DNA of 60,918 bases, the filler included, from Globobulimina sp. (taxonomy: Eukaryota), in NCBI GenBank assembly GCA_003354225.1. It is 11 parts of 11 records of this genome, joined end to end, with 100 filler letters (N's around TTAATTAATTAA, not from the genome) between each part and the next. Parts side by side here need not be neighbours in the genome. Positions count along the whole stretch, not along the records: positions 33,303 to 38,748 come from PIVH01000568.1; positions 38,849 to 44,291 come from PIVH01000569.1; 9 more parts are not named here. One strand, given 5' to 3'. This document shows positions 1 to 49,834 of this stretch, piece by piece. The notes below the pieces were generated by a model. It searched no databases. It saw only the letters and a list, made by a program, of their open reading frames with translations, and was not told the origin of the DNA. The translations under genes and the position numbers were made by a program. Numbering within the stretch: the stretch's first letter is position 1; every line of letters starts with the position of its first letter.

Positions 1-66
1 CTTATTTCGTCAAAATAGAGGAATTGAAGAGCACAAGAAATTAGATGTAGTATTTAAAGACTTTTA

Positions 67-22640: not shown

Positions 22641-25600
22641 ATGTCAATCGCTGCTGCTCACCTTTGGCACAAACCATCGGAACGTGCAGCATGGATGAGA
22701 CGTTTCGTAATTGTCTCAGATTCAGCCATACGAATTTATGGCACACGCAATGATAACGAACAACATGCAGAAGCAATGTATTATATTGATCCAGAACAAA
22801 AACAAGGAATACGTTCCATCGATATCAGTAATGTCAAATTTATATTAGAAAAGAGTCGCAATCTGTATGTAATATATAATCATATCCTAGCACACATATA
22901 TTAATATATTAATATTCTTACATTAGAATCCAATGGAAAAACGATACAGGAGAATGGTTCCAATTTCGTTGTGATTCGCCCTCCATTCAAAGCAGATGGC
23001 ATAGCGAAATGTTAGAGATCCAAAAGAATTGCATCAAAATACGTATTGATTCAGAAACAAATCATTCCTTAAACAAAGAGCCGACTTTGTTTGCCTTCAT
23101 TGTGCGTAAAGCAGTGAATCGATTTGAAAAAACCATTTCCAATCTCAGCGATATCAAATCCAACAGATATCAGCAACATTATTTTTGTGCGGACAATGAT
23201 CAATATTTAGAAGGTTGGAAGAAATGTATTATTGAACAAATTGCTCATTGTAATGATGACAAAAATGCAGTCAATCAGCAGTCCAAATTCCTACGCAACA
23301 AATTAGCAGAACATCGCAAACGAAGTTATAACATCAACAGCAGCGAGAATACCTTGCGCGAGTACCATACGCCGAGGCTTTATCATAACAGCAAAGGAAG
23401 CATCACCTCCATAGCCACTGCGGCAGACAACGAGCAAAAGTATATTGGCCGCAGTAGGCAGATCTCATTGGACTGGATCGATTATAAAAAGATATCTGAC
23501 AAAGAAATCGATCATCGCATGCAAGAGTTGATGAACAATTTGAAAATACCCAAACATGCGAGGTCCAACATGCTGCGTTTGAATAAGAAACAAAAAATCA
23601 AAATGTTAGAACAGCATCATATAAAACAGCAATTGAAAAAACAACATGAAAGTGGCAGAATATGGAGCGACAAATTTGCAGCTCATAACTCTGAAGGCGG
23701 CACAAACAAAGTTAACATATCCACGCTGCAACAATTCAGTGTGGTGTTGCGAGATGAAACGGACCAATTTGTCAAGGATTTCATTCAAAATCTAGGCCTG
23801 AATCGCTTATGTAATTTAGCCACAAAATCATTGCAACACAATGGCTCCTCGCAACAAAGAGGGAAATCATATTTTGGTCAGTTTGATATCGAATTATTAC
23901 GTGTATTGAAGGCGATTATTGATGCAAATGAATATTCGCTGAAACAAATCGTGGAACATAACCTATGTATTCGTATTATTGCGGATAAGATCGACTCGCA
24001 AGATATTAAAATATCAGAATTGGCGCTGTCGTTATTAATCACTATGGTTGGCATTGAAAATGACGAAATTTCAATCTCAGCGTCCCAGAAAATATTATCT
24101 GCGCTGTCTGATTTAGCTCTGTCCAAAGGACAAAGGAACAAATACAAAGTATTGATATCTCACATGTCGGTCAAAGATGTTTTAAATGGCTCCTTTCAGT
24201 ATGATACGTATTCCATTTCGTTGCTAAATTATCTCATTATGTCCCTGCCACATTTACATTTACGAATGGATGAGCGGCGCTTATTAAATTCGTTGCAATT
24301 TGACAAAATATTGAATAAGTTACAGGATCGCATCAGAATACATTCAAATGAATATTATAACCATGCTCTACTGAATCAAATCGAAACTTATCGCAAATTG
24401 TACGAAACGGACAAACGCAATGCAAACCAAAATGAATTCGTCGATGCGGAGTGGGATATGATGAACGATTTCGATATCGATAATCCCAAGGATTTATTCA
24501 AACGATTACATGACCAATGTCTAAATGACGCATATATCAATGAATTGACTTCGATATTAAAAAATTTGGTAGTTTTGCCTTCCAGCGCCGAAAATGTGTG
24601 GTACAATGTCACCAAAATTGTGAATGCTGCATGCAAACCGATCCAAAACCAAATGTTATATCCACAGAAAGCAAAAGCAGCAGAAACGGAAACAGAAAGC
24701 AAGCTGAATTCTGTGGTTGAGGGCGAAATAAAAACACAAAATTTTGATGAAAATTATATCAAATTAGAATCGAGATTCGTATATCCAACGTATAAGGAAT
24801 TACGCACTATGCTGGAAATCAGGGAAGCTACAAACATGACGCTGTCTGATACCCGCTCCAATGCGAATGCGTCGTTGCAAAACGAATTGAACCAAGCCAG
24901 AGAAAAACAATTAAAACTGGAAGATGCTTTATTATGCGAAAAATCCAAGAGCTTAAACTTGGAGTCGCAGTTACAACATTTGTTCAAATATGGCACATCA
25001 TCGCAGACCAATCCGTTGGCCAAAACGCCCAGTAATAAGTCAAATAATTCAAACAGCTCAAACAGTTTAAGCAACTCGTCCTATATCGTGGTGGAAGCAG
25101 AAGCAGATAATGAGGATAAAAAAGAGGCAGAAATAGTAAAAACGAAACAGGAAATTGCAGCCAAAGTGGTGACAGTCACAGTCACAGTCACAGACTCTGC
25201 GCCATCCATTGCGAAGACTGTAGCCGTTGACGACGGATTGAATAAATATAGGAAAATGATCAAATTTAAAATGCCTAAAAATTCAATTGTGAATAGAATG
25301 CGGCAGGACGGCATCGACAAAAATATAATTGAACAGTATACAGAATTGGATACATTGCCGGGTGGCAATGCAAAGTCAAAGAAGCCGCAAACGGCGGGCA
25401 AGGATCCAAAGGCTGCCATGTTGGCAATGATTGCGAGTAAAAGTAAAAGTAAAACTGCTAAAATAAGCACGTCCTCCGACGACGAAGAAAAGCTCAAGAA
25501 ATATCGCAAAATGTTGAAAATAAACCTGCCGAAACAAAGTGTGATTAATAGGATGCGGCAGGACGAGATGGCACCGAATTTGATTGGTATTTTATTCCCC

Positions 25601-27190
25601 GACGCTGTGGAAGCAAAACAAAGTGAGGGTGACACTGGAAACAATGGCAATATTTTATCGGCGCTCAAACGCAAAAAGAAAAAGAAAGCCGCGCCGAAGT
25701 TGCCAAGCAATTTGAGGCCGAAAAAGCTGATTAAGCCTAAAAACAAAATGCGAAATCTGCACTGGACGACGGTGAACCCGTTCGATGTCGAAAAAACTAT
25801 CTGGAACAGCATCGACGATGAAGAAATCGAGTTTGATGTCTCCGATTTGGAGAGCAAGTTTTGTTGGAAACAGAGCGAAAAGGATAACAATGAAAAGATT
25901 GAAAAAAGCAAAGTGAAGCTGAAGATGAAAAGTGACATCGTGCGTGTTTTGGATACGCGGCGCTCGTACAATATTGAGATATTTCTGGGTCGCTTGAAGA
26001 GCGATCCGTGGACGTTGCGCGAAGCCATGTTGTCGTTAAACGAAAGCAGGCTGAATTTGGACACGGTGCACAAATTAATCAACTTCGTGCCCACAAAGGA
26101 TGAGTGTCTGCAATTGGACGGCTATGAAAACGAGAAGAATCTGGGCGTGGCGGAGAACTTTGTCAAAATCATCCGAAATGTCGACGGCGATTTGCGCGAA
26201 AGACTGATTTTGTGGGAGTTCAAGATGGAATTTAATGACTTGTACGAGCACGAAAAGCGGCAATTGATTTTCTTGCGAAAAGGACATGATTCCATCAAGA
26301 AATCTGGCGATTTGCGCCAGATCTTTTGCATCATTTTGTCGATTGGAAATTATATGAATGGCTCGACCAACAAAGGCCAGGCGTACGGCTTCAAACTGTC
26401 TTCGCTGTCTCAGTTAATGCGGTCGCGCACCGTGGATAACAGCTGCACTTTGATGGAGTATCTGTACCAATTCGTGTCGGCGTCGCAGCGCTACCGCCAT
26501 TGCCTGCAGTTTGTGGACGGTTTGGCCTGTTTGGAGGATACGTGCTGCGTCGACATAGCTGTGCTGCGGCAGAATATTGCGGGCATCGGGCACAAATTGA
26601 AGCGCATCAAAAAAAGAATGGATTCCTATTCGAATCCGGCCGGCTCTGCCATGCACCGAATGGGCGACAACTTTTATGCGGTGATGCAGCCGTTTTATGT
26701 GTGCGCCATTTTGAAGTTGGAGTTGTTGCAAAAAGTGCGCGACGAAATGTTCACTGATTTGAAGGATTTGGGGGTTTGGTTAAACGAAGCGAAGGACGCA
26801 AACTTTAAATATCTGAAAACGTTGAACCAGTTTCGGCTGAATTTTATTCAAATTATCAAAGTGTCCAAGATGAAAAAGGAGAAATTGGCGCGGATCGAAA
26901 AAAGAAAGAAATGGAAAGAAAACAAGTTGAAAATTAAAAACAAGAAAAACAAAAAAATCATCATCACGAAAAAGAAGAAAGAAAAAAAAGAAACAGAATT
27001 TTTAACAGAAAAAAAGGAAAAGAAAAAGAAAAAGAAAAAAGAAGAGAAAAATACAAATATTTCGGATGTCGTCATACAAACATTGGTCGATGGCACTTCT
27101 TATAATTTCATACAAAGACTGCAAGACCGAAACAAATCCGCTTCCAAAAGCTCGCATAGCCATAACCGCTCAAAGACGGCTTTGATGTAA
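22641..27190 (+). CDS. Formin with N-terminal PH domain(s), GBD/FH3 and FH2; 2 exons
   Basis: FH2 motifs MRNLHW, LDTRRSYNIEIFL, IGNYMNG..GQAYGFKLSSL. PH motifs WMRRFVIV and F.CDS..Q.RW. Phase-2 intron 22865-22926 (GTATGT..TAG) joins the two ORFs. Confidence 0.93.
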
Positions 27191-28130: not shown

Positions 28131-31100
28131 ATGCCAAAGAGCATCAAAAGCATTCTGCGAAGAGCCACAGGAAGAAACGGCAAGTCTATCCGACGCAAAA
28201 AAAATAGCCGCAAACAAAAATCACGTTTTAAATCATCAAACAAACGTACACCACAACCACAACCACATAAACCTCAATCCGCCACTAATTCCTTCAAACT
28301 CCAACTAAAAAATCTCCGACGCAAACAAATAAATCGTCCGCTATTAAAATCCAAACAAGTAAAGCTCCGAAAAGAAAAACAGCGACAACGCAGACATGAA
28401 ATTGATAGAAATCGCAAACCAAAAACAATCGAATACCTAAAAGCGAAAAAAGCCGGCAATCCCCGACAAGTAAAAGGCAAGAAATCCCAGCTAGCCATCC
28501 TTCCAATTTCCTATTACAAGCAACAAGAACCCAATGAAGAAGAAGTGCCTTTTCGTGATTCATACTTCGCCGCAAAAATAAACTCAATATCATCCATTAA
28601 CCGCTCCTTAGAAATGCAAACATTGAAAGACAAATTAGGCCCATTATCCGCCTCCTTACCGCATGTATTATTGCATAAAAAGAAGATATTCGACCTCATC
28701 ATTGATTTTATAAACGAAGAGGCTCACAAACACATCTTACGCGATGCCGTTGGGTATGTCGATAACTTTGCATCCTTGCACTCCCTCTGCATTTTAACAT
28801 TATTGACACTGAATTGACAGATTATTGATACAATTGGCCAAGGACATACGTCAGGAATTCATGCCATTTGTGGACGATTTATTGGTGTTTTTGGTGGAGA
28901 TGTTTGAATGGAGAGAAACTAATTTAATTAATCTGCGTATTGTTTTTACAGCGTTTTCGTGGCTGTTTAAATATTTGCAGAAATATATGGAGATGGACGA
29001 TATAAAGAGATATTATAAGAGGCATTTTATGCGTTTTTTAGGGAATAATAAGTATTATGTACGCGATTTTATGGCGGAAGTATGTGGCAATATATTCAAA
29101 AGCAACTTGTTGTTGGCTGAAGGTGGTGAAAAGGAGAAAATACTGATTTTGAGAAATGATATTTTGAGTGTAAATGTTCGACAGTATTTATATGACAATG
29201 ATCTGTTGAGGGATACCAGTCAAACGAGGCGCAATTTGCAGATTGGATTAAGTATATTTCTATTTCAATTGATTCGAGGTATTTTGAAAGGATTTCACAG
29301 TAAAACTGCGGTAATGTTACCATTGATGTTAAGGGTATTGAAGCGGGACAGAACTGTCGTAAATAAACGAGAAAAGGAAGAGCGCCAACACCAAATGAGT
29401 GTATTTAGGCAATTTATTGATTTATCCGCTGTCTATACCAATAATGCACACTGTTTGACATTTTTTGCACCATTTTTCAGCACATTAAGGCAACATTTAT
29501 CACGCATGCAAAAGGAAAATGAATTAATGAGTATTGATGAGGATGCAAATGCATTTTTAAGTGATTTGGATTATTTGAATAGATTATTGTCGTTATTTAA
29601 TGTGTGGATATCGCACAACGTCGGCGAAGTTGTACCGGTCGCTGCTGGGCAAAATTTGATTGCTTTACTTATCGCCTTAACTGACGAAAAATGGATAAAT
29701 AGCATAAATACCAAAGATGCAGCACCGGAGCTGTACGTTTATATTCGTGCGGTGATGGAAGTCATTGTAAGTTGTTGGAAGATGCATAAATTTCAATCCA
29801 TTGTGAGATTTCGAAAAGTATCGCAAAATGGCATAAAGATATTGTTAGATCATTGTCATTCGGACACGAAAATGATCAGATTTATCATCGACAGGTTAGG
29901 CGCAACAAACATATTAGACACACAAATGAGAAAATATCTCATTCGGTGGATCGAAAAATGGGGCGATTCTCATGATAATAATCAAGCAATGTGGATTTTT
30001 TTGAAATTGATGCGGAAAAACGATAAAGGTTTCAATTTGGGCGAAGACAGTCATATTATTCACAAAGTAAAGCAGGTTATGGCGGTACCGGTGCGTGGTG
30101 GTCGCAGTAAGGAGAATGATGCGAAAATGAACGAGTTATGGAAATACAATGTTGGAAATGTATGGAAAATCAGTCTGGGACAAAGTCGCCAAATACAGCA
30201 ATATTTGCCAATGATACGACATTTTCCAGATAAGTTAGAATGGATTGAAGGCATTTACAATTTGGTCAATGTATTGCTGAATTTTATCATTGCGAGAGAC
30301 CGACAAAAGGCACACATTGAAGATTATAGATTGACATTTTTAAATAAATTGCATAATGTACTAATTCAGTTATTGATGGCGTATTTGATGCAACATAATG
30401 TGCACGACATTGCACTGCCACACATTTTAAACAATTTGCAAACACATTGGAACAAATGGTTTACATTAATCCAACGACACAGATATAACTCATTTATATT
30501 GAACGCATCATTGAATTTCATGGAATTTATACATTCATTTCATGCGTTTTTGAACACCGAATCACAGACAAAAGTCACTGGAAATATGATTGCTGTCAAA
30601 GACACTGTGGACAGAATATTAAATATGGACACATTCACGGTGTATTATCCGTTATTATTACCACATTTACACTCAGCAAATGCAAGCAATCGACGCCATG
30701 CCATTGATATTTTATGTTTATTCAACGCAGAAACCCGCTTTAATAATATTGACTATTACGGCTCGAAGATATTACGCAAGCCCATATTGCAGGAATTAAA
30801 GGACATATTGCACGATGATTGGGGGCCTTCCTTGGACCGTGTCCGCGAGACTAAAGTGATGAATATAATATCTTTTGCATCAGGCATTGAACCATTATTA
30901 TACTACAAACAAGACATTAAGATCCAATCCAAAGAGGATGGCATTAGATTAGGTAAACGGCCATGTTTGCACACACAACAAAGCTCCGCAGCCAACAAAT
31001 ACAACGCAGAAATTAATGATTATCAATTACAAATTGTCTGTCATGTTGTTTTTGGTTTTTTGCGCATTAATTACCGTCCTTTATGGAGTCACAGCATTGA

Positions 31101-33202
31101 ACTATTAAATGTATTAAGTACGCGTTTCCCGCGGATGTTATGGACGGTATATCACCAAATATTGCGTGATCTGATGCGTATTACGCATATTCGACGCGAT
31201 ATCGCCGAAAAATTAAGTGTTAGACAGAGCTTATTGGTGAATAGAAATAAATTTGCTGCGTCCCGACCTTTGCAAGTCTTGAATTTCTTATTTGAACATA
31301 TCAATAAAAACGCAGTATTCGCGGCAATGCACATCAAAGATATCGTAACTATGTTCCTTGCCTTTATGGACAGTCAATATCATTTAGCTTATCCTCATTC
31401 CGCTGCTGCAGGAAATTACGGATTAATTATGGACGAAGACGCCGACGATGCTGCGAATAAGAAACGAATCAAAAAATATGATTGGAGTAAAAAGGATGAA
31501 TGTTATACAAATACATCGAAAGTCAGAGTGCTCAGCAAATTGCGCAATTTTTTGGGCCTATTTAGTAGTGTAAGCGTGGATTATCACGGAACATTCGCTG
31601 AGGCCGTCGTGGTCAATTTACGTGATACGTTTTACAGATTATTATTACTGCGCGAGTTGGATATACAAAACATGACATTGGCGGCTTATGTGCGCTTTTA
31701 CCCTCAGATCGCGCAGTATTACTCCAACGAACTGCGGAAAGAAGCAAAGGCGATCTTGGACAAAAAGGGCATACGTATGAAAGCAGTAAAGTCGCGCAAG
31801 CGACATTACAGCGCTTCCTTCAGATCGCTGTTGAAGTTAACCAGATTGAAAGCGGGCTTGGTCAATTTCAATATGATAAAAGGGGACATTGGCTGCGTTG
31901 TCAATGACGAGCATCGCGTGTATGTGGTACCTGTTGTGATTCGGATTTTGTACAATAAGTTATATGAACGGCAGGCGCGCAAAATAAAAGGCACGGTGCC
32001 TCAGCGCAGAAAGAGGATACTAACTTATATTTCTCTGCTGGAGAAGCACGAAATCTTTGCATTTCTGGATATTTTGCATCACAATTTTGCTTCCTGGAAG
32101 CATACGGATGAGAGCTGCAGTCGCTCTGCGCCCGGTTTTGCCGCACAAGTCCAGCATTTGCGGATCATCGCCTTGTGGCTGCAATGTGCGCCAATGACAA
32201 TGGGTCCTTTTCTGGACGAATTTTGCAAGTATTTGACGCTTATATTCAAGCATAGTTATAAGTTTCTGACGTGTGCGCATTACCGGAAAGCGCGCAGTTT
32301 TACTGCGGTCGAACAGGATAAGTGTACGAGAAATTTTAATATGTGTTTGGACATTTTGCAGAAATTCGTTGAGTTTTACTGCGAGTCGATGGGCGTTCGC
32401 ATGGTATTGAAAGATTGGATGAGTTACATCAAGGACTATTTACAGAGCCAACTGCCAGAAATACGGCACGGCAATGCCTATGAAAATGTGGTGGCAATAT
32501 GGAGCTTATTGAAATCGGTCAGTCACAACGAGGAATGTTGCAATTTTTTCGACTTACGATGGCCGTTTGAATTGGTGTTGAGATGTCTAAACAGTGCAAA
32601 ACTGTCCAAATTTACACGCGGTGCGAGTTTGAAGATCATTATGAATTTAATGGACAATCAAGAAACTATGCGTCCGCTATTTATTAGGCACGGCAAAGGT
32701 ATCTTGCATTGCATGCTGCGTTTATTGCTAATTCAGCAGCAGAATGAGTTAAAAACAGAAACGGAAATGTCTGCGAAATCCAAAAGGAAACAAAATCCCA
32801 ACACCGAATTGAAAATCTTAGTGTATTTGGCGGATATTATTGAGGATAAAACTCAATTGCAACGCTTGACTGATTCATTGATGCCATATCTAATTAAATG
32901 CAAACGTTACAGCCGTATAATTATATCCTTGTTGGAGGTACTAACAAAATTAATGAAACAGGTGGCAAATTATCAAACGTGGGCGCAACCTTTGTGTGAT
33001 ATTTTAAACTCGGTCTATGATAAAGTCGGCCGGTCATTGTTGTGCCAGTTATTGGCCAATATCTCAAAGTTAGCAGTAAAAGAAAGTAAAAGTGGCGACA
33101 GAGAGAATACAGTGCGTTGGTTGCAATTGGTAGCGCCGCTATTATTGGATTTGAATTGTGTGTATATCGAAGAGATAACAGGCAATCCCGTGCCATTTGC
33201 GT
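28131..33202 (+). CDS. UTP20: SSU processome HEAT-repeat protein UTP20 (DRIM), 3'-partial
   Basis: SLPHVLLHKKKI..LAKDIRQEF and the DRIM-like HR..VVPVVIRILY.KL..RRK.IL. Phase-2 intron 28754-28820. Confidence 0.85.
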
Positions 33203-33390
33203 NNNNNNNNNNNNNNNNNNNNNNNNNNNNNNNNNNNNNNNNNNNNTTAATTAATTAANNNNNNNNNNNNNNNNNNNNNNNNNNNNNNNNNNNNNNNNNN
33301 NNTAGGTTTAACTCTTGTAATCGCTGTTCATAAGACATATTATTCATTCCAAATACCATTTTTGTTGCACGTTTCTGGATTTTTTCAATC

Positions 33391-33470
33391 ATTATTTCGG
33401 GAAATAATCCTAATTATTGGCTACTATTCGGTTAACAGTTTATTACAAGAGAGATTTATGACAGACCGGA
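33391..33470 (-). repeat. 80-bp direct repeat, terminal copy (B2)
   Basis: Identical to 36197-36276. Contains minus-strand AATAAA (33444-33439) and ends in the palindrome attatttc-gg-gaaataat. Confidence 0.97.
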
Positions 33471-33510
33471 GCATGAAACAAGCGGTTGCGTACAATAAAA
33501 TAAAAATATA

Positions 33511-34554
33511 TCAAGAAAAGTCTAAAAGCTGTTGTATTCGTTTCTCATATTCAGAAGATGTCTTGAGGTTTGATTGTTCGAGTGACTGTGGGGCTGTAGG
33601 TTTCCCTGGAAACATTTTTCGTGTAATATCGAATTTCGTGGATGAAGCAGGGTTGACATACGTCTGCACTGAATCCCTACTTCGCCATCGACCATGTCTT
33701 TGAATTAACTCCATGTTAACTCCTGAGCGAGCTGCATGTGTAGCTCCGCCCGCCCTCAAACTATGAAGGCCATATCGTTTGGGATCTTCCCCAACTACTT
33801 TAAGAAGCTGCTTCAAATATAGGGCAGTCCTTCTATAATTAATTTTGTTCCCCGTGTTTGAGAAGACGGGATCTTCAGGCTTATTAAAAAATGATACCAG
33901 TGACCATGCCTTTAGAGCTGCAACCGGACAACCAGTTGATCCAGTCTCGGCTAGATAAACCCGTTTTCCATCGCGCATTTGGTCGTTTTTTGCTTTCGGA
34001 ATTGTTATGATCAGTCCTTCTTCAGCATAGTACTCAATATCCTGCCATAACATGTCCCGGGCTTCTGCAAATCTTAGAAAAGCTGCATAGGATACTGTTA
34101 AATATGCGGTCCATAATTTCGTGATCTCGTCTCCTAACTTTTCCTTGTTCAAAAAAGTACAAATATGGAGCAATGTTTCGTGTGATAATTCTTGTTTACG
34201 TTGCAGCCCCTGACGAATCATTCTTCGCTGTGTTTGCAAAATGGCTGCAGTTGCACTGCCTTGTGTAGGGTCAGTTAGATTGCACTGCTTATGCCACCAC
34301 CTAATTGCTGCTACTCCTTGTTGCATAGATGCGGGCGATTTTGACTGCTGACCTCGTTCATACAAAAACTGCACTACGTTCACTTCTTCTGCCGGCAAAA
34401 CGGCGAATTGTCTCTGCTCTGCCCAGTCAATCCATCGTTTCAATTCTCTGACATAAGCTTTGATTGTGTTTTCTGACTTACTAGACCATACAGTATCTAA
34501 TAATTTATCTTTCATTTCCTGACCAAACTTCTGCCAATATGGTGTGAACTTCAT
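33511..34554 (-). CDS. DIRS-type tyrosine recombinase
   Basis: SAM-like N-terminus (SENTIKAY...W); catalytic residues in FLRFAE, KAKNDQ, HSLRAGGAT, HGRW and QTYV. Confidence 0.95.
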   Translation of the reverse strand: MKFTPYWQKFGQEMKDKLLDTVWSSKSENTIKAYVRELKRWIDWAEQRQFAVLPAEEVNVVQFLYERGQQSKSPASMQQGVAAIRWWHKQCNLTDPTQGSATAAILQTQRRMIRQGLQRKQELSHETLLHICTFLNKEKLGDEITKLWTAYLTVSYAAFLRFAEARDMLWQDIEYYAEEGLIITIPKAKNDQMRDGKRVYLAETGSTGCPVAALKAWSLVSFFNKPEDPVFSNTGNKINYRRTALYLKQLLKVVGEDPKRYGLHSLRAGGATHAARSGVNMELIQRHGRWRSRDSVQTYVNPASSTKFDITRKMFPGKPTAPQSLEQSNLKTSSEYEKRIQQLLDFS

Positions 34555-35203
34555 ATACTCTACAAAAAGATCAAAAGCGCCTTATGATATGGTAATTTGG
34601 TCGTATCAATATTATCTTGTTACTAGTATTCGCAATATTCACGTAAAAATTAACCATGTTACCCTCGCAGGCTATTGTGACGACAAAGTAGTAAGGATGT
34701 GATCGTGCTTATAAACAAAGTTTTGCTGTGCCAAAACAAACCTTTCTCCTCAGACAAACAACAATGGATGGAAAAAACAAACTGTCAAACTGTAATGCTT
34801 ATCAATTATTGCAAACATCCTTCATTTTCGGCATTTAATGTTTACATTCTATGAATATTCCATTAATGCTCCTATTCTCTATATTTTGTGTTTGTTCTAA
34901 ATCCAACAACAAGTGTTTTACTTGTCACAACATGATTTACTCATTAGTGCAATCTTCATAAAAGTTCAACATCAGTTATCAATTCAAAAAATTTTTTATG
35001 TCACAGTTTCATTCCTCTGCTCGTATCTCTCGACCCACTAATATATTGTCGCTATATATTAGTTTTGATCGATCCCTAGCTTGCTTTAATGCAAACATAT
35101 GCGACATTATGTTTACATCAAAACCGCAGAACATGCCTAATCGTGTAACATAAACAATTTTTTCCCTAAAACCCAACATTAAGCGATAACCATTTGATCT
35201 CAA

Positions 35204-35948
35204 TCATTTGTTATCGTCAGTCTTCTTCGGGCACTTCTTCGCTATGTGATCTCTTTCGCCGCAGCAGTAACATATGATGGGTCGCTCCGATTTGATTGTG
35301 CTTTCCACCAACTTCGGTCGTGTCAACATGGGCTTTTCTTTCTTTTTGAAGTTTAATCCAGCTCTTTCACGTTTCACAACAACCATCTCGGCTTCCCTGA
35401 CCAACTTTGCATCATTCTCCGACAATTGGCATGAACTATTCCCGAAAGCCAACTCTGCTACTTGAAAACTGTAAATAAAAGAGAGAATTTAGGCAAGTAT
35501 TTAATTACTCCTTGCCCATTTTGATAATTTCTAATCTACGCGATGCTACTAAGCAAGCATTGCCTATTACTTCTCTACTACTGCCAGCCTTGACCAACAC
35601 TAATCTGCGCTACTCGCCATAATATGTAAGTGCAGTGCCTATTGTGCATTCTGACTTTACTAATGCTAATTTGAGCAAGAACAGACCACTAAGTCGTCCA
35701 TATTTCATTATCATACTCCATTTGTTCTATTCTTGTTTGTTAACGCACTTACTTCCGTTCATTAGCTGTCCACAAAAACTTTTGTCTATTATTAATCTTC
35801 GTTTCCAAATTTCCCAAAACGGCATCCACTTTGGTTTGGTTCGTTGGCGTAGTGGTCTCGTTTGTGTTTCTCGCTTCTTGGACCATCTGGAACCATTCGT
35901 CATTACATTTCGCTTGCTGATGGACCGCATCCCAGCGCCAATTTACAC
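35204..35948 (-). CDS. Gag exons 2-3 of the YR retrotransposon (spliced, CCHC knuckle)
   Basis: Exon 35948-35753 (TTTCAG acceptor, GTAAGT donor) and exon 35468-35204 (TTTACAG acceptor) join in phase 2: RQKFLWTANER|NFQVAELAFG..AKLVREAE..CYCCGERDHIAKKC. Confidence 0.75.
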
Positions 35949-36196
35949 CTGAAATCAGCAAAACCATACATGTATGTACGTACGTACTGTATACATTGTA
36001 GTGCACTATGTACTATTATGGGTGGGTGGGATGGGTCAATTACAGCTTAATCTTCTTTCCAACCGCTTTCCAATCGCTCGCCTGTCCGAAGTGCCGACGA
36101 CTGCTTGAACGTAGCTTCAAGCCCCGCCTTCGCATAAATTACTACACCAGCGACCCCTGCCGCTGCTTACAACCTTCTATTACCCAATAATTGTAG

Positions 36197-36276
36197 ATTA
36201 TTTCGGGAAATAATCCTAATTATTGGCTACTATTCGGTTAACAGTTTATTACAAGAGAGATTTATGACAGACCGGA
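36197..36276 (-). repeat. 80-bp direct repeat, internal copy (B1), followed by a GC-rich putative A2 segment
   Basis: Starts 6 nt after the pol stop and is identical to 33391-33470. Region 36196-36050 is GC-rich with small hairpins (gcttgaa/ttcaagc). Confidence 0.95.
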
Positions 36277-36282
36277 AGTAAT

Positions 36283-38712
36283 TTAGCTAGCGTCCGAAAA
36301 ATCCAGTCTTAAAGCAATCATATCATTTTTCAATTTCCCATTTGAAAAAATTGACTGTGTATAAGCTCCTGCTATTACAGCTTCCCTCCCAGGTGAAAAA
36401 ATCCGAATATCTTTTACAAATGCTGCTGGCAATCGATTAGGCATCACCAATGGCCACACTGGATTTGACGGCCATTCAGCCATTACTACAGTGCCTTGTG
36501 CTTTACAACTTTGTAAAAGTCTCACTGCTTTAAGTAATAAATATGGAGGTGGTACGATCCAATTGTTATATCCAGCCCAGTTAAAACATAAAGCATTAAC
36601 ACCTTTTGAACCTTTTTCCCCGTTTAGTGAATTGAAATTCGTACACATCGCGTTGTCCGCGTCGGCAAATCTATCAAAATTGTGTGGACCAAAGGCTTCA
36701 TCCAACTCCTTAAATACTGCTGGATGAATCCTCCAGTCATCCTTGTCTACTGCTCTACTGTAACTGTCCGCTTTTTTATTTTCTTCCCGCGGAATCCATG
36801 TTAACCTTAATATAATTCTATGTTTGACACAAACCTGCAGCAACTGCCTAGTCAGCTCATTTAATTCTTCTTTCATACTTCCTTTTTTCACAATGTATGT
36901 GATAGCTTGATTATCAGTAAACCAAGTGACCGTTTTTCCCGCTAATATATCTGCCCAGCTGTCCACCGACAACTGGACTATCTTCAACTCCCGCCAAGTA
37001 GAACTCTTTTTCTTTTGATCGTCTGTAAAATTTCTTATAAACTTTATATTTGTCTTATCAATATAGGCCCCCGCTGCCACATTACTGGCATCAGAATAAG
37101 CTGTGACTGTCGCCGGTGGAATAGGAACTAACATTTTTGATATCTCAGGCTTTATCAAGACTCTTATCCAAAAAGCTATCTCTTCCCTTACTGTATCTGA
37201 CAGCTTGTAATAAAAATCCCACTGATTTGCTCCCTCTAAACAACTCACTGTGTATCGGCACAAGGCCTTTGTTGCTATAGTGGCTATGTCGCCTATGACT
37301 AATCGCATGCTAACAATATTTCCCGCCAACCTGGCCACTTGTCTCGGAGAGGCACGCTTTTTACTAATCAGATTTCGCGCCAAATTTAGTACTTTTTGCC
37401 TACGGCTCTCGGGGGTGGAAAGTATCCTTTTGTCCAGGTCGATGACTAAACCTAACCATGACAGCTGTTTTGTTGGTTCCCATACTGACTTTTTACAATT
37501 TATACAAAACCCTGCTTCCTGCAAGTCATTTTTTACCCTTTTGGAATGCTGTTTTGCTCGGTCAAAATTGGGCGCCAAACCCAACCCATCATCCAAATAA
37601 AGAATCAACTGAATTCCCTCGGCTCGCCACCTACGCACTAAGGGACGTAAAAATTTCGTAAAAACAAAAGGCCCGGTGTTAATACCAAAACATAATACAT
37701 TGAACTGAAACCATTCTCTCTGGCCATTAAAAGTCCAGCTAAAACCCAAGTATCTTACACTATCTGGATGAATTTCTATATGGTTATAAGCTGCTTCTAA
37801 ATCAAACGAAAAACAAAATTCCGCCGTCGTCAAGTACTCCTCGGCTACAGAATAGTCTTCCAATTTAAATTTTTGCTTATAAACAAACGGATTTATAGTT
37901 GAAGCATCTAGAATTAGTCTTTTCTTCCCTGATGCTTGCACTGCCACTGATAAGGGGTTGACTACTAAAGGGGCTACTGCCACCCTTTCTATTAGTCCAT
38001 TTTTCAACAATTTCAGAATTGCCCCTTCTACAAAATTTGGCTCATCTTTTGCCGAACGATTATTATTAAAGAACGCCCTGCTGGGCAACGTCTTGAATGG
38101 TATTCTATAACCATGCTGTACAATATTAGAAGACCAACCGGCCTTATCAATGGTAGCCCAAAAATCAATGGCTCGTCTTAGATTCCCTCTAATGGGCATA
38201 AGTGGGACGTCGCTCCACTTATCGTCGTCACATAAACCATCATATAGTTTAGTAATAGCAAAAACATGATAATTTGTTTGCAATTTAAACTTACGTCCAA
38301 CTCCTTGCAACCATCGCCGATCGTCTTTCGGAACTTGAGCCACACCTGACGCCTTTGTGAACTCCTTCAACATATTGGTCTTGAACGATTCCATAATCTC
38401 CAAAAAGTCTGTCGGCACACTAGCACGACTTTCTTCCAATGATTGAGTGGTTTTCTTTTTCTTTGGAGACGCTTCTGGGCTTGAGTCGTTTGAACTGGGC
38501 AAGAGATTGCGTTTTCTTGGGATTTTGTAACCAGCCAGGAATTCTGTCCTCTTCGGTGGTTGAGGCTTGCTTGTCTTCTGGGCTTCTTTGATAGGAGTAA
38601 TTTGCGATGTGACCAAAGTCCTTTGCCTCCTTTTCGTTGCCAACACATTGCGAAGCGTGACACCTGGAGAGAATTTCACCGTCTGTTTCCGACCTCGACC
38701 TCGACCTGACAT
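36283..38712 (-). CDS. DIRS-type Pol: RT + RNase H + methyltransferase-like domain
   Basis: RT motifs KKRLILD, FDLEAAYNHI, LCFG, YLDD. RNase H motifs YSDAS, SSTWREL, FTDNQ, WIPREENKKADSYSR. MT motifs DW..FGPH.FDRFA..NALCFNW..WIVPPP..WPS..WP. Confidence 0.96.
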   Translation of the reverse strand: MSGRGRGRKQTVKFSPGVTLRNVLATKRRQRTLVTSQITPIKEAQKTSKPQPPKRTEFLAGYKIPRKRNLLPSSNDSSPEASPKKKKTTQSLEESRASVPTDFLEIMESFKTNMLKEFTKASGVAQVPKDDRRWLQGVGRKFKLQTNYHVFAITKLYDGLCDDDKWSDVPLMPIRGNLRRAIDFWATIDKAGWSSNIVQHGYRIPFKTLPSRAFFNNNRSAKDEPNFVEGAILKLLKNGLIERVAVAPLVVNPLSVAVQASGKKRLILDASTINPFVYKQKFKLEDYSVAEEYLTTAEFCFSFDLEAAYNHIEIHPDSVRYLGFSWTFNGQREWFQFNVLCFGINTGPFVFTKFLRPLVRRWRAEGIQLILYLDDGLGLAPNFDRAKQHSKRVKNDLQEAGFCINCKKSVWEPTKQLSWLGLVIDLDKRILSTPESRRQKVLNLARNLISKKRASPRQVARLAGNIVSMRLVIGDIATIATKALCRYTVSCLEGANQWDFYYKLSDTVREEIAFWIRVLIKPEISKMLVPIPPATVTAYSDASNVAAGAYIDKTNIKFIRNFTDDQKKKSSTWRELKIVQLSVDSWADILAGKTVTWFTDNQAITYIVKKGSMKEELNELTRQLLQVCVKHRIILRLTWIPREENKKADSYSRAVDKDDWRIHPAVFKELDEAFGPHNFDRFADADNAMCTNFNSLNGEKGSKGVNALCFNWAGYNNWIVPPPYLLLKAVRLLQSCKAQGTVVMAEWPSNPVWPLVMPNRLPAAFVKDIRIFSPGREAVIAGAYTQSIFSNGKLKNDMIALRLDFSDAS

Positions 38713-39201
38713 CCTTGCAAAAACAATTTTTCTCGATAAAAATAATACNNNNNNNNNNNNNNNNNNNNNNNNNNNNNNNNNNNNNNNNNNNNTTAATTAA
38801 TTAANNNNNNNNNNNNNNNNNNNNNNNNNNNNNNNNNNNNNNNNNNNNATTTGCTAATTAATGTTGCAAGTTCTTCCTGACCCTTTTTGTTTTTTTGGTA
38901 AAATGCCTTGAGAATAAAAGTGATATGGCAATAACAACTTGTTACTATGTTGCAAATATGAATCCCAAAATATGCGGTTTTTCATGCACAACTGTGTGAA
39001 AGGAATGCATTTAAGTCAGAATCGTCGAGAAGTTGGTGGATAAAGTATCGTAGAATTGCAAAATTGGATTCTTACTTCATACGGAGCAACTTAATAATTC
39101 AACTTCTCAACGCATAAACTTCTGAACCTCTCAACCTCTCAAGCTTTCTTTCAATAAATCAACATGAAAAAACAGATTGCAAAGTCAGTAATGCTACGTA
39201 G

Positions 39202-44391: not shown

Positions 44392-44505
44392 TGTGGTATA
44401 TTAACATATTGTACCCCCCCTATTGTAAGCCCCTTATACTTAAGCTAGTCTTAGACCTTAATTTAGTACTTAGTCATTCCTACTAAGAAGTTACGCTATA
44501 CCATA
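44392..44505 (+). repeat. Putative short 5' LTR (114 bp)
   Basis: Starts TGTGGTATA and ends TATACCATA (8/9 inverted match), 2 nt before the PBS. The second LTR is not in the contig. Confidence 0.65.
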
Positions 44506-44507
44506 TT

Positions 44508-44521
44508 TGGTGCGTCGACCG
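44508..44521 (+). promoter_or_regulatory. tRNA primer-binding site, probably tRNA-Gly
   Basis: TGGTGCGTCGACCG is complementary to a tRNA 3' end CGGTCGACGCACCA; eukaryotic Gly tRNAs typically end in GCA-CCA. Confidence 0.7.
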
Positions 44522-45040
44522 TTCTTAATTGAAACGAACGGAGAGAGAGAGAGCATAACAGCAGACATGAGTAGTAATTGGAGCAAACGCTTCAATATGA
44601 AAGTACTTGTATGTAATAAAATTTGTTTTCTGTCTCAAATTCTGCACCACGAGCTTACGCTCACCAAAAACGAACTATCGACAAACATGACCTTTTTAAC
44701 TGGCCAAGTGCTATTATAGCATGTTAAAATTGGTTGTGTATATCTTACAACACGCGGATAACTTTTGTTAACGTATGAAGCTGTTGATATGCTACCTAGT
44801 GGCAATATTTTTGACAACACATGTCATGTACTATAACTGTACGACGTTAAAGTGTTGAAGGTACCGAACGGATTTAAAACCGTTACTACGAAGCGCGTGT
44901 TATTGAAAATAATGTTGCTATGCTGACTATCAATGTTGCTATGTTGCTATGCTGACTACTAAACGATTAACAACGTTTCCACATATTAAAATTAAAATTA
45001 AAGTGGTCAAAATAAACAAATTACAATATGTATACAGGAT

Positions 45041-46573
45041 ATGATTGGCGAGCAACGAAAACAAACAAAATTACTTAGTGATGCAATCTTAGACATTCAC
45101 AAAAACACAAAAACAGAAAAATCAGATTATGCACAACTAATATATGAAAAAAGCATAACAGAAAAATTCGAGGTGCACTTTCCCGCCGAAACCGCGGATG
45201 TCTTTGAATATTTCACCCGAATCGACCTTTATAAGGCCAAAAATCCGAATGTAATGAATAAACATTTGTTCCAGAATGTGATCAAATCATTACCGCGATC
45301 GAGGTTGGCGGAATGGACAAATTACCGCAATGCGCAGCTATCCGATAAAATTAGTATGCATTTGCACTTTGATGTATTGCCCGAAGCAGAGCGGAATGAA
45401 TATCGTGCCATGTATTTGCTTCGTGTGTCAAACTTTGATGTATATAAAAATTGGATTTTGTCCATATTCACCATAACCGCCGACCATACCACATTCGATT
45501 CGCTATTCCAAAATATTAACATTCGATACCATGAGGACCCCTCGGCGTTGTTCCGTCGGCTCCAACAATATTTCGCCCAAATTACTAATATAATCAAATT
45601 ATTGAATCGCACAACGTATCGCGACTCCAATTATAAGGCAGCTGACCTTACTCCGCGCGAAAAATTCAAAATATTGTATCGGATCTATGTGACTAATAAT
45701 TGGGATAAAAATAATAATAATTACGGCAAACATAATGAGAAAATGCGCATAAATATTTTGAAGGGATTGAAGGAGGATGGATATGAATATGATGTCATCG
45801 TAGCCCTCATCAAAAAACAAGATACCAAAATCATACCACTTGAAATACGCGATGATAAAATCAAAAAATACCATTGGCAAAAATATCCATATAATCACAA
45901 TGAATCCTCCATATTCCTCATCAGCCGTAATCCAGCCACATCGAAACGAAAACGGTATTATGAGACCGATGATGGCAGTCCGCCGATAAAAAAGCAACGC
46001 TTTACATCGAAACCACAGTGCAACAACGGATTAAATTGCAGCCGCTACATTGAAAGTGGTCGCTGTACATTCTTCCATCCACCAAACGAAATGCGTAGTC
46101 TTTACCTACAACGCAAGAAATATTTATCCAATCAAACAAAAACGTACACAACGGATAAATATAAAAACAGAAATAGAACCAAACCGGAACAGAAACGCGA
46201 GTTTAAACCGGATTGCAAATATGGAACAGAATGTAGAATGTACCAAGAAGGGCGCTGCAAATTTTATCATAAATATAAAGAAATGAAATGTGGCAAATGT
46301 GGCAAATCCGGCCACGCGAAATTTAAATGCTATGTCAAATCCATGGAAGCCAATGATAAAAGTGATAAAATCCCGCATTATGATCCGAAAAACACTGTGA
46401 ATGCAACCAAATCATTGCAGGAGTTGCAAAAATACCGTACTAATAATAAATTGTCGGACGCCCAGAACCAAAAACTGCTCACATTGGTTCATGACATCAC
46501 CGGACAGCGTCCCCGGCCTCGTACGAAGTGGAGAAAATGGAGAGGAGGCAAAGGCAGAGCCCGACGCGGATAA
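45041..46573 (+). CDS. Gag with two CCCH fingers and one CCHC knuckle
   Basis: CNNGLNC-x8-C-x3-H, CKYGTEC-x7-C-x3-H and CGKCGKSGHAKFKC. Confidence 0.85.
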   Translation: MIGEQRKQTKLLSDAILDIHKNTKTEKSDYAQLIYEKSITEKFEVHFPAETADVFEYFTRIDLYKAKNPNVMNKHLFQNVIKSLPRSRLAEWTNYRNAQLSDKISMHLHFDVLPEAERNEYRAMYLLRVSNFDVYKNWILSIFTITADHTTFDSLFQNINIRYHEDPSALFRRLQQYFAQITNIIKLLNRTTYRDSNYKAADLTPREKFKILYRIYVTNNWDKNNNNYGKHNEKMRINILKGLKEDGYEYDVIVALIKKQDTKIIPLEIRDDKIKKYHWQKYPYNHNESSIFLISRNPATSKRKRYYETDDGSPPIKKQRFTSKPQCNNGLNCSRYIESGRCTFFHPPNEMRSLYLQRKKYLSNQTKTYTTDKYKNRNRTKPEQKREFKPDCKYGTECRMYQEGRCKFYHKYKEMKCGKCGKSGHAKFKCYVKSMEANDKSDKIPHYDPKNTVNATKSLQELQKYRTNNKLSDAQNQKLLTLVHDITGQRPRPRTKWRKWRGGKGRARRG

Positions 46574-49500
46574 AAACCAATTATTTCCCCTCGAACTCGC
46601 GACTCCCAACAAAACTAATATGCAATCTCCTCGCCGCGACGCCAAAATCAATCTAAATCCACATTTGATTGGTTGCGGTGCTGCGATACCAACCACCACG
46701 ATCTCCGAAAGCAATATGAGTAATAAAATAGATTATTTTGAGGCAAATACCGCATTGTTAATACCTGGTGCCTATAAATTCAAATCTAATGACGTTGGCA
46801 CTCAATCGGACAATGATATTGATATGGAATTCGATGAAAAGTCCGATACCGACGATGTCAATGCATTTCTCGACAGTGATTTCATTGTCTCCGATGACGA
46901 TGATTATAAAATTAATATGGAGGATACCCGAATGCCAGAACCATATGATTTAACTCCATCAATTTCGAATATATTTATGACCCATCCCGCATTCAATACG
47001 AATAATAAATTGTATCAGGAAGCGCTTGATTATCATTTTAAGCGCAACCCAATTGATCGCCTATTAATAAATGATGATATTATTGATGTGGATAATATCC
47101 ATTTGCCAGTCCGCGAGGTTACAGTCAACGTCGCATCCTTTGATATTGGCAAAATCCCCGCATTCGCCGATACCGGCTCAAAAATACAAGCCATTGGGCC
47201 CAAAATCGCAGCAAAATATGCAAAATATCTCCAAAAATCACGTAAAGGCAAAACCTTACAGACCGGCAATGGCATACTCACAACGCATCGATATTTGCCC
47301 TTAATTATCAAAGCAAAGAGGAAACAAAAACATAAGACAAAGAATGAAAAGGATAAATATAAATACCTATATTCAAAATTTTGGGTCATTGAGGATTTAC
47401 CGAAGCAGCATGATTGGTTGATTGGTGATAATATGTTGAATGAATTAGGCTATAATTTGACGCATAAGTATGAAATATATGAGCACAAACCGCAACCACT
47501 CGACCTGCTATCCGAGGACCTCGATGACATCGCATGTATGCGGTATCCCAATATAAATCCGCCCAAAATAGATCTGAATAAGGTACACGTACAAAATAAA
47601 GAATTGGAGCAATTTATAAGAAATACCCTGCTCAAATACCAAGAGGTCATAGCCAAAGATGAATGGGATAGTGGCATGATACCAGACGCTGAATTTGTTA
47701 TAAATTTCATTGAAGGCGATGATCCGAGGAAGGATGGCTTTGTCTGTACGGAATATCCAATGCGCCACACATTACGTACGGAGGCTACGCGCCAAATCAA
47801 AGGCATGGTACAGAAAAAAGTCATATCGCGCTGTACCTCCAAGTATGTCTCGCCGATATTCCTAATACCGAAGAAAACGGGCGACGTACGGATCGTATTT
47901 GATTATCGTATCTTGAATATGATAACGGAGAAATTATTCCATCCCATACCTCGCAGAGACCGCCTATTGCATCGATTCAAAGATAAAAAATTCATCACAT
48001 CATTGGATATGAAAGGTGGATACTGGCATATCCCAATAAAGCCAGAACACCGCAAACGGACTGCATTTGTATTTGATGGTGATGTATATTGTTGGAATGT
48101 GATGCCATTTGGCCCCAAAAACGCTCCGATGTATTTTCAGGCCGTAATGCAAAATATATTTGATGGTCTCGACTATGTCTTGGTGTACATCGACGACATA
48201 TCCATTGTGTCCGAGACGCTCGCCGAACATAAGCAGCATTTGAAGGAGGTTTTTGATCGTATTCAGGCGCATGGCATCAAACTCCGACTCGATAAATGTA
48301 TATGGGGCGCCACGGAAACTGAATATTTAGGATTTGTGGTGAATAAAATTGGTGTATATACCAAGGATAGCTATAAAAAGAAGGTATTGGCCGTACCTGA
48401 GCCTACCAATAAGAAGGAGCTATTGCGCTTCCTCGGCCTCGTCCAGTTTCTCGGTGATTTCATACCGCAGCTAGGCGCCAATACCGCTCATTTGTCCACA
48501 TTGCTACATAAAGATAAGGCGCAATCATTCACATTTACGCCTCACCAACGCTCCATATTCGACAATATCAAATCAAAAATTCAAAATATTGATTATTTGG
48601 CACATCCAGACCCACGTAAACCATTCCATGTATTTACGGATGCATCGATATATGGCATTGGCGGGATGTTGGCCCAAAAGGATGATAATGGCAAATTCCA
48701 TCCAGTCGCATATTGCTCGAAAACGTTTAATCAAACACAACAGAATTGGCACGTTTCGGAGCAGGAAATCTTCGCAGTGATCCATTGTGTTGAAAAATGG
48801 CAATATTTGCTTAATTATGCGAAATTTACGATACATACCGACCACAGCAACTTAGAGAATCTATTTAATAAAGCACGAGATTTCCGCGCCGGTAAATTGT
48901 ATCGATGGGCTGTGCGATTACAGGATTTCCATTTTGACTGCAAATTTATTAAAGGAAAGGATAACAAGGCAGCGGATTACCTAAGTCGCGACGCATTGGA
49001 CCTACCATCAAATATAAAAATTCGCCAATTCTATCGCGCCAAACCAAAATCAGCCGACATCGATGGTATTAATATCATAGCATCGTACCATCAATGCTTA
49101 ATCCGCGAAATATTATCATTGGACACAAATTGTAATTATTTTTGTCCATTCCAACCAACGCCGACACCAAAAACGTATCCAAATCAACCGACGCCCATTG
49201 GCGAATCGCTTAATTGCATCATCCCACTCAAACCATTGGATACTACGCCGTACGCCGCGCCGTTTTATCCCAATTCATTCATCGATGATGTATCGAGCGC
49301 CACCACCGACGACGACGGACCTCAACGTCACAAAGCACCGCCACCTGAGCTCGCCGACTATGATATTACCACTGAGTCCGATGACGACGCCGCATATTTA
49401 CCACCATATGCCACTGTACCGTCAGACTCTGAACATCAGAAAATACCCACTCGCTCATCACGTCGCCATAATAAAAATAAAAATCCATCGGATTACATTG

Positions 49501-49834
49501 ATCATACACCATTGGTACCTACGATTGGCACCGTTTACGATGCAAAATTATTGAAAGAATCCGTGGAATTGCGACAAAAACGTGCTCTGAATAGGTGCAA
49601 ACAAAAAGAAATGAATCAAAGAATAATAAATAAAAAAGCCTCATACCCGGTGTACAATAAACAGATATTTTATCCATTTTATAGTACACCAATCCAGGAT
49701 TATTATACTTCGATAATAAATCCGAACAACGCAGAAACCCAGAAATTGATCGTCGAGAAGCAAACCGCAGACTGCTGTACAGTAGTGTTCCCGATAAGAG
49801 GTACGCATATTAGTACTAATATTATATATTATAC
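46401..49834 (+). CDS. Gypsy Pol (protease, RT, RNase H), partial
   Basis: FADTGS (protease); DYRILN, SLDMKGGYWHI, MPFG, YIDDI (RT); TDAS, TDHSNL, N.AADYLSR (RNase H). Lies in the +1 frame relative to gag. Confidence 0.96.

Follow-up and report, generated by a model that had tools for sequence, protein, structure and literature searches.

A PAT-like retrotransposon of Globobulimina sp. with its gag core behind pol, a predicted intron within gag, and a possible first coding exon common to Pol, Gag and recombinase

Retrotransposons of the DIRS order are in general described as carrying gag, followed by pol and then by the gene of a tyrosine recombinase (YR), at least in the excerpts of the two accounts that are used here (PMC9210276; PMC3266345). 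In the Pat1-like 'nematode form' and in Kangaroo, according to the excerpted part of Szitenberg et al. 2014 (PMC4157794), an internal repeat is found between the methyltransferase (MT) and the YR, and the replication model for elements with split direct repeats, likewise as excerpted (PMC6681497), has the RNA start in the repeat called A1 and end in the one called B2. The locus described in this work lies on the minus strand of one 5446-bp contig (positions 33303-38748) of a 60,918-nucleotide (nt) stretch of DNA from Globobulimina sp. (assembly GCA_003354225.1); the whole of this stretch is referred to as the window, and its coordinates are used throughout. To judge from its sequence, the locus holds a complete or near-complete, intact and probably young PAT-like retrotransposon of the DIRS order, in which the core of gag comes after pol, a layout that is conserved in a second lineage. 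The gag core reads as being divided by a spliceosomal intron, and exon 1, which forms the beginning of the pol frame, may be shared by Pol, Gag and the recombinase through alternative splicing, a proposal to which we assign a probability of roughly 0.4 and which is the most likely of the models that are open.

With the Pat1-like 'nematode form', as far as the excerpt of PMC4157794 describes it, the element has in common the reverse transcriptase-RNase H-MT (RT-RNase H-MT) and YR, the A1-B1-A2-B2 repeats, the position of the B1-A2 junction and the zinc knuckle of Gag, and both are without a protease or a DDE integrase. Unlike what is stated for the DIRS order in general in the excerpts cited above, the CCHC-bearing Gag core is located here after the internal repeat and is apparently split by a spliceosomal intron. 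Kangaroo (from Volvox) and Toc3 possess split direct repeats as well; in the same excerpt (PMC4157794), however, the recombinase of Kangaroo is inverted and neither Kangaroo nor Toc3 has a zinc finger, whereas the element described here combines a co-oriented recombinase with a CCHC motif. In the literature searched, which did not extend to the primary PAT and Kangaroo papers, overlapping open reading frames (ORFs) are described, and neither introns or splicing for DIRS-order elements nor a position of gag for PAT were found. The original PAT report may have included a gag-like ORF between the repeats and a short gag transcript, and if so, the gene order is old and the new content consists of the intron and the splicing hypothesis.

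Along the element, the order of parts is A1, 5' untranslated region, N-terminal region-RT-RNase H-MT, B1-A2, gag exon, intron, gag exon with CCHC, spacer, recombinase and B2. The main features are given below (aa, amino acids; a slash within a sequence marks the splice point).

38713-38748, minus strand: 5' untranslated stretch; the contig begins about 10 nt downstream of the end of A1, so that A1 is cut off by the contig end
38295-38712, minus strand: exon 1, with its ATG at 38712; 418 nt, i.e. 139 codons and one base; also the N-terminus of the Pol ORF
36283-38712, minus strand: Pol ORF of 809 aa (RT-RNase H-MT), with its stop at 36285-36283
36197-36276, minus strand: B1, the internal copy of the 3' terminal repeat; begins 6 nt past the pol stop; AATAAA at 36250-36245
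36035-36196, minus strand: A2, the internal copy of the 5' terminal repeat, formerly noted as a GC-rich segment; possible internal promoter
36020-36034, minus strand: 15-nt C-rich motif CCATCCCACCCACCC, adjoining A2
35965-35967, minus strand: ATG in the gag frame, 6 codons ahead of the acceptor and the third ATG after A2; candidate start if gag is a transcription unit of its own
35753-35948, minus strand: gag exon 2, 196 nt, preceded by the acceptor TTTCAG/G at 35949/35948 and followed by a GTAAGT donor
35469-35752, minus strand: predicted gag intron, GTAAGT...TTTACAG, 284 nt
35204-35468, minus strand: gag exon 3, ending with the CCHC zinc knuckle and a stop codon
34560-35203, minus strand: spacer of 644 nt without an ORF, its final ~300 nt unconserved
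33511-34559, minus strand: tyrosine recombinase exon, with the acceptor TTTTTGTAG/A at 34560/34559 and a conserved ATG (34554-34552) 5 nt downstream
33391-33470, minus strand: B2, the 3' terminal repeat; AATAAA at 33444-33439; end of the element

The first donor, GAC/GTAAGT, is located at 38295/38294 in phase 1, and the frame stays open through it into the Pol ORF. The product of exon 1 is basic and rich in Ser and Pro, with a conserved, helix-like C-terminal part; it matched no Pfam family, and in a word-based search of its 139 aa against longer proteins none of the 400 candidates scored. When exon 1 is joined to gag exons 2 and 3, an open frame for a 292-aa Gag ending in the CCHC motif results, and when it is joined to the recombinase exon, an open 488-aa fusion is obtained.

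Relatives were sought in metagenome contigs with a part of Pol, which led from 39 candidate stretches to a single locus, L001 (5400 nt, from another assembly), and no further loci were found in genome contigs or viral contigs using the Pol alignment or a back-translated gag pattern. L001 is collinear with the element over its entire length at ~76% nt identity (79% aa identity in Pol), and in it all five splice sites are at homologous positions, both phases are kept, both exon-1 joins are open, and the first donor reads AAC/GTAAGT, again in phase 1. Beyond B2 the flanks of the two elements are unrelated apart from one short shared word, and since the same layout recurs in L001 within different flanks, it is not an artefact of nested or tandem insertion. 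A nested or tandem second element, which had been considered, is thus ruled out by the collinear L001, and misassembly is ruled out by the same anatomy being present there.

Compared with L001, synonymous sites are saturated (synonymous divergence, dS, of 1.1-1.5), and at this level of divergence the ratio of nonsynonymous to synonymous change (dN/dS) amounts to 0.27 for exon 1, 0.11 for the rest of Pol and 0.135 for the recombinase. The gag exons, in which synonymous sites are too saturated for a dN/dS value, retain 69% (exon 2) and 70% (exon 3) aa identity. These figures indicate that purifying selection acts on all five coding blocks, and because dS is saturated, letters that are conserved outside of coding DNA carry weight.

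The solid part of these results is a PAT-like gag with what is, by comparison of the two elements, a spliceosomal intron, positioned behind the internal repeat and conserved across deep divergence. The predicted intron measures 284 nt here and 96 nt in L001; aligning the two opens 188 gap columns and leaves 45% identity in what can be aligned, against 66-70% for the exons on either side. The GTAAGT and YAG are kept, and exon 2 has 196 nt in both. Exons 2 and 3 lie in different frames here (284 mod 3 = 2), which means that a continuous Gag can be obtained only by splicing. In two distant relatives, the proteins P0006 (173 aa) and P0151 (180 aa), the counterparts of exons 2 and 3 are contiguous, with one residue at the predicted split codon; these relatives either have no intron or are derived from cDNA, and either way they validate the predicted junction. 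If the gag intron is genuine, the genomic RNA that is copied must be unspliced, and the element family uses the host spliceosome. Its being kept further implies that the pool of spliced mRNA has to be separated from the pool of unspliced genomic RNA, as it is in retroviruses and in Ty1/Copia; the arrangement bears on the balance of structural versus catalytic proteins and on RNA production in DIRS-order elements. ORF-based annotation pipelines will miss Gag in such elements.

P0006 and P0151 are 79% identical to each other, and the residues that precede their conserved block differ in both sequence and length. Pfam zf-CCHC is matched by P0006 with an E-value (E) of 1.7e-6 (28.3 bits) and by P0151 with E 4.9e-5 (23.7 bits); the Gag of the element itself gives E 1.2e-3 and 19.3 bits, below the cut-off of 20.8. 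An exhaustive protein search with the profile of gag exon 3 returned 190 proteins at E <=1e-3. Among the seven matches examined, the profile was spanned by P0002, which is L001's own ORF, and by P0006, whereas P0036 is a short related fragment, and the other matches listed resemble CCHC-repeat proteins, with repeated short matches to profile positions 50-88. When the gag profile was compared, in a word-based search, with proteins of near its own length, 4 of 1575 candidates scored (P0006, P0151 and, from L001, P0002 and P0152), and with the exon 2 profile against longer proteins 0 of 65 did so. A fold prediction for P0006, made with the gag alignment, has a mean predicted local distance difference test (pLDDT) score of 51, with helices at residues 13-41, 45-74 and 93-111, a quality too low to base a fold search on, and a complex prediction for the C-terminal part of exon 1 together with gag exon 2 reached a score of 0.02.

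Much of this had been put forward in an initial annotation of the DNA. The donors, acceptors, phases and joined frames that it listed are all present at the positions given above; the second GTAAGT..TTTACAG intron, by which it had a CCHC-type Gag completed, is borne out by the difference in length from L001 and by the contiguity in P0006 and P0151; and the Gag core that it placed downstream of pol is found there in L001 too, with different flanks. The splice sites and phases, for which it had asked whether a related copy would keep them, hold at all five sites and in both phases, and its concern that the gag exons might belong to a second nested or tandem element is answered by the collinearity throughout L001. 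Its assignment of the locus to the tyrosine-recombinase retrotransposons agrees with the Pfam matches to RVT_1, RT_RNaseH and Phage_integrase.

In those simple retroviruses whose splice donor is located within gag, Env shares the first codons of Gag, and the unspliced RNA is the genome. The proposal of a shared exon 1 is similar to this in that one 5' donor would serve alternative acceptors and a first coding exon would be held in common; it differs in that the shared part would comprise 139 codons in all three proteins, in that there are no env and no long terminal repeats (LTRs), and in that integration is by a tyrosine recombinase. With the same tentativeness as for the sharing of exon 1, we suggest that the element may be expressed in a retrovirus-like manner, with one promoter and one 5' coding exon, with pol inside a gag intron, and with a shared handle of 139 residues into Gag particles. 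If true, a retroelement that integrates by a recombinase would have arrived independently at the way in which retroviruses express their genomes, and there would be a concrete idea of how Pol and recombinase are packaged.

In this model, a full-length RNA reaching from A1 to the poly(A) site in B2 would double as the mRNA of Pol and as the genome, and a share of it would be spliced from the GTAAGT after codon 139 to either of two phase-matched acceptors. Splicing to the gag acceptor, with removal of the gag intron, would yield the 292-aa Gag, which would place pol inside an intron of gag, and splicing to the recombinase acceptor would yield the 488-aa recombinase with its N-terminal extension. 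The shared N-terminal region would then tether Pol and the recombinase to Gag assemblies, much like the Gag part of the retroviral Gag-Pol, and use of the AATAAA of B1 would give an mRNA for Pol only. With the AATAAA ~50 nt before the end of B, the RNA would be without the extreme end of the element; the internal B1-A2 junction could act as the template by which the missing ends are restored during reverse transcription, following which the recombinase would insert a circular or equivalent intermediate.

A related logic has been described for 'shGAG' of Ty1/Copia and for BARE, in which, according to the excerpts available, splicing coupled to early termination or to the choice of poly(A) site gives a Gag-only RNA (Oberlin et al. 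2017, PMC5580714; Chang et al. 2013, PMC3735527). If exon 1 is shared as proposed, a spliced Gag mRNA would stand beside an unspliced RNA for Pol and replication in both cases. Ty1/Copia and BARE are, however, LTR elements with gag upstream, in which, as far as those excerpts go, the splicing removes a part of pol, whereas here an intron of gag would enclose pol, and the recombinase would depend on a further splice; the likeness is one of mechanism and not of membership.

Taken in this element alone, the set of splice sites is not beyond chance, as three GTAAGT are found on the sense strand here, against a chance expectation of ~2, itself a rough estimate from base composition. The third of them (34476-34481) lies within the recombinase ORF, is absent in L001 and is probably a chance occurrence. 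The splice sites do exceed chance by virtue of all five being homologously placed in L001, where no GTRAGT hexamer other than the two predicted donors occurs in 5400 nt. Ordered by a crude position-weight score, whose frequencies are fit for ranking only, the two donors come 3rd and 2nd among the 306 GT sites of this element; among the 301 of L001 they come 4th and 2nd. Nucleotide identity between the two elements rises to 0.83 exactly at each acceptor, up from ~0.4 before that of gag and from ~0.33 before that of the YR, the stretches just before both acceptors being 30-45% identical, no better than random; the spacer has 51% identity in aligned columns, dropping to ~0.3 immediately before the YR acceptor. 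The 9 nt that precede the gag exon are nevertheless identical in L001, within sequence that can otherwise not be aligned. Exon 2 of gag in L001 contains no in-frame Met, and the conserved Gag frame begins at the acceptor without a conserved start codon. Finally, the phase of the first donor suits both acceptors, for which the chance is 1 in 9.

Several points weigh against exon 1 being shared. At 6 codons before the gag acceptor here, and at 7 in L001, there is an in-frame ATG that no stop codon separates from it, the chance of such ATGs occurring in both elements being estimated at ~0.05-0.2; the argument from phase (1 in 9) and the argument from these ATGs (1 in 5 to 1 in 20) come close to offsetting one another. 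An ATG that is perfectly conserved follows the acceptor of the recombinase after 5 nt, the recombinase is a complete two-domain enzyme without exon 1, and A2, a copy of the presumably promoter-bearing 5' terminal repeat, lies directly upstream of gag. The proposed introns would have 2346 and 3735 nt, whereas contigs of the host show long uninterrupted ORFs and one intron of ~67 nt. The first donor also encodes Arg-Lys in Pol, which accounts for part of its conservation, and in a word-based and therefore weak search, sequence resembling exon 1 was found on no Gag, Pol or recombinase in the protein collection. It has also to be mentioned that none of the sequencing runs listed as carrying sequence of the contig is recorded as RNA; assembled contigs from four of the runs (X1-X4) contain no spliced joints, which says nothing on expression.

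An alternative that we consider somewhat unlikely is that of two transcription units, in which gag would be transcribed from a promoter in A2 and translated from its own ATG (35967-35965) into a Gag of ~160 aa, with the same gag intron, Pol would be made from an A1-driven RNA ending at B1 or B2, and the recombinase would start at the ATG 34554-34552 by reinitiation, leaky scanning, or with the help of a further promoter or splice. The initial annotation had named the GC-rich segment at 36196-36050 as a place from which the gag exons might be transcribed on their own; the segment proved to be A2, a copy of the 5' terminal repeat, and an own promoter could indeed reside there. A2 is the same in kind as that repeat, stop-free in-frame ATGs precede the gag exon in both elements, the ATG of the recombinase is conserved just where conservation of that protein begins, and introns of the host seem short, all of which is as expected if gag has its own unit. 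The same can be said of the C-rich motif CCATCCCACCCACCC, which is conserved just after A2 and not after A1: its letters are the same in L001 (2872-2886) in spite of saturated divergence, and it may belong to a promoter or act as a signal for replication. The gag ATGs, however, are at non-homologous positions, each is the third ATG after A2, behind short upstream ORFs, and the ~60 nt before the acceptor, ATGs included, are just 39-45% identical. Furthermore, N-terminal extensions of the Gag core are unconserved in sequence and length in all four cases (the element, L001, P0006 and P0151), and two units offer no clean route to the recombinase; a join of the gag donor, which is in phase 2, with the acceptor of the YR breaks the frame.

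It is quite improbable that both acceptors are used with a trans-spliced leader, as in operon-like processing, or with another, weak upstream donor in place of the GTAAGT after exon 1. An acceptor a few nt before an ATG is the geometry typical of trans-spliced genes, and the YR acceptor lies 5 nt before a conserved ATG; trans-splicing is also common in several intron-poor, compact lineages, a description that fits the host, whose formin is animal-like. A candidate for another donor is CAG/GTG (38346/38345 here, 513/514 in L001), which precedes the GTAAGT by 51 nt, is present in both elements and, being likewise in phase 1, would suit the same acceptors. Trans-splicing at the gag acceptor, however, would leave the gag frame of L001 without a start codon, while the use of another donor would be merely a minor change to the proposal of a shared exon 1. 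Finally, it is highly improbable that the element is a dead end or co-integrate, made when two circles or partial elements (A-pol-B and A-gag-YR-B) recombined where B meets A, with splice-like sites that arose by coincidence. It can be read as two tandem A...B units, and the flat X1 contig depth of ~7-8 over both halves suggests a single or low copy number. L001, however, has the same order and sites and selected, intact ORFs at saturated divergence, so that the arrangement has been passed on as a whole; in either element B1 matches B2 at 100%, as expected for recently copied elements; and the gag half has no RT, the pol half no Gag or recombinase.

With regard to classification, the domains of Pol are located as follows.

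37836-37444, minus strand: RT, with YLDD at 37599-37588; Pfam RVT_1 E 2.9e-17
37098-36754, minus strand: RNase H; Pfam RT_RNaseH E 7.6e-5
36753-36541, minus strand: Dam-like MT, residues 654-724; PF05869 E 6.9e-8, 32.8 bits versus a cut-off of 28.1

The recombinase matches Phage_integrase (E 3.1e-13) and Phage_int_SAM_1 (E 6.6e-8) and contains AEARD, HSLRAGG, HGRWRS and VQTYV, which we take to be the catalytic-type motifs of such enzymes. Consistent with the DIRS order, RT and RNase H are encoded on the same strand as the tyrosine recombinase, and neither an aspartic protease nor a DDE integrase is present among the Pfam matches of the four ORF products (E <=0.1); the element contains no additional ORF of >=60 aa with coding conservation. 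The Dam-like MT after RNase H, the split direct repeats A1-B1-A2-B2, by which PAT-group elements are defined, and the zinc knuckle of Gag point to the PAT-like group, it being understood that A1 is seen here only as its last ~30 nt, in an X1 contig, and that L001 has the two repeat pairs in full. No contiguous gag precedes pol, as just 139 codons without a recognisable domain precede the RT. Inverted terminal repeats of the DIRS1 type were not found either, there being seven inverted pairs of which none is terminal and the longest has 23 nt at 78%, and the element is unlike Ngaro in having an MT and in having the internal repeat upstream of gag and YR. Among Atlas clusters, the look-alikes of Pol are DIRS-type Pol clusters, some of them with Dam, which can be taken as a lead only.

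As for the repeats, B1 (36197-36276) and B2 (33391-33470) are identical at 80 of 80 positions, with an AATAAA in each. The initial annotation had noticed an 80-nt repeat with AATAAA right after pol and again after the YR, which holds with 100% identity and with the AATAAA conserved in L001; it had missed that this repeat is the B half of a PAT-type system and that the window is a chain of contigs, the start of this one cutting off A1. A contig of run X1 passes 38748 and continues with 10 other letters and then with ~30 nt identical to 36064-36035, the end of A2; since it thus reads into a copy of the A2 end, A1 is present, and the assembly broke at the repeat. In L001, A1 (1-120) equals A2 (2752-2871) at 99%, and the 89-nt B1 (2583-2671) equals B2 (5256-5344) at 100%. 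The B-A junction together with the first part of A (36118-36237) is 77-90% identical to L001, which is at least as much as coding DNA, and from this conservation the junction is likely to be a core of recombination or replication.

Over the element, X1 contigs have an even depth of ~7-8, which roughly doubles across A2, and no variant letters occur within the element; the insertion may therefore be present once or in very few copies, with identical repeats. X1 contigs also diverge into unrelated sequence at 35038, 36977 and 37009, and these loose ends may represent truncated or rearranged further copies, or assembly chimeras. Beyond B2, the contig holds the following.

33303-33390, minus strand: flank, an open frame; insertion target of the element

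This flank is presumably the C-terminal region of a non-LTR reverse transcriptase of the long interspersed nuclear element (LINE) type, to judge from a motif. The flanking LINE has extra depth and variant contigs in X1, and contigs of X1 and X2 match it up to 33393 and then go on without the element, in an empty-site-like form. The 9-mer TGAAAAAAT is found 3-4 nt beyond B2 in both elements (window 33379-33390; L001 5345-5360), whose flanks are otherwise unrelated; as part of the LINE-type target in the window, it may reflect a target preference of the recombinase.

The window as a whole (1-60918) consists of 11 contigs of 5441-5453 nt, joined by linkers of the form N44-TTAATTAATTAA-N44, and since the element fills one entire contig, the ORFs next door in the window are not its genomic context. 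ORFs that apparently span linkers, e.g. at 28813-33258, are artefacts which result from N being read as X. Long ORFs on other contigs encode a DOP1 homologue, a Diaphanous-type formin and UTP20, and belong to a LINE-like and a gypsy-like element. The formin (22913-27190, 1425 aa) and the DOP1 homologue (11107-16554) are uninterrupted across 4-5 kb, whereas the UTP20 homologue is broken by a GTATGT..ACAG intron of ~67 nt at 28754-28820. Its presence indicates that the assembly is genomic DNA of an intron-poor eukaryote, and a transcriptome origin of the window was rejected, since the UTP20 contig retains this 67-nt intron. The Atlas clusters closest to the formin are animal ones, again as a lead only. 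A LINE-like retroelement occupies window 1-5453 (ORFs of 475 and 1361 aa; RVT_1 E 2.3e-17), and a gypsy-like retroelement occupies 44392-49834 (ORFs of 523 and 1161 aa; RVT_1 and RT_RNaseH E 1e-33), the latter having a weak tblastn match of 21% identity to the PAT-like Pol at 47802-48989.

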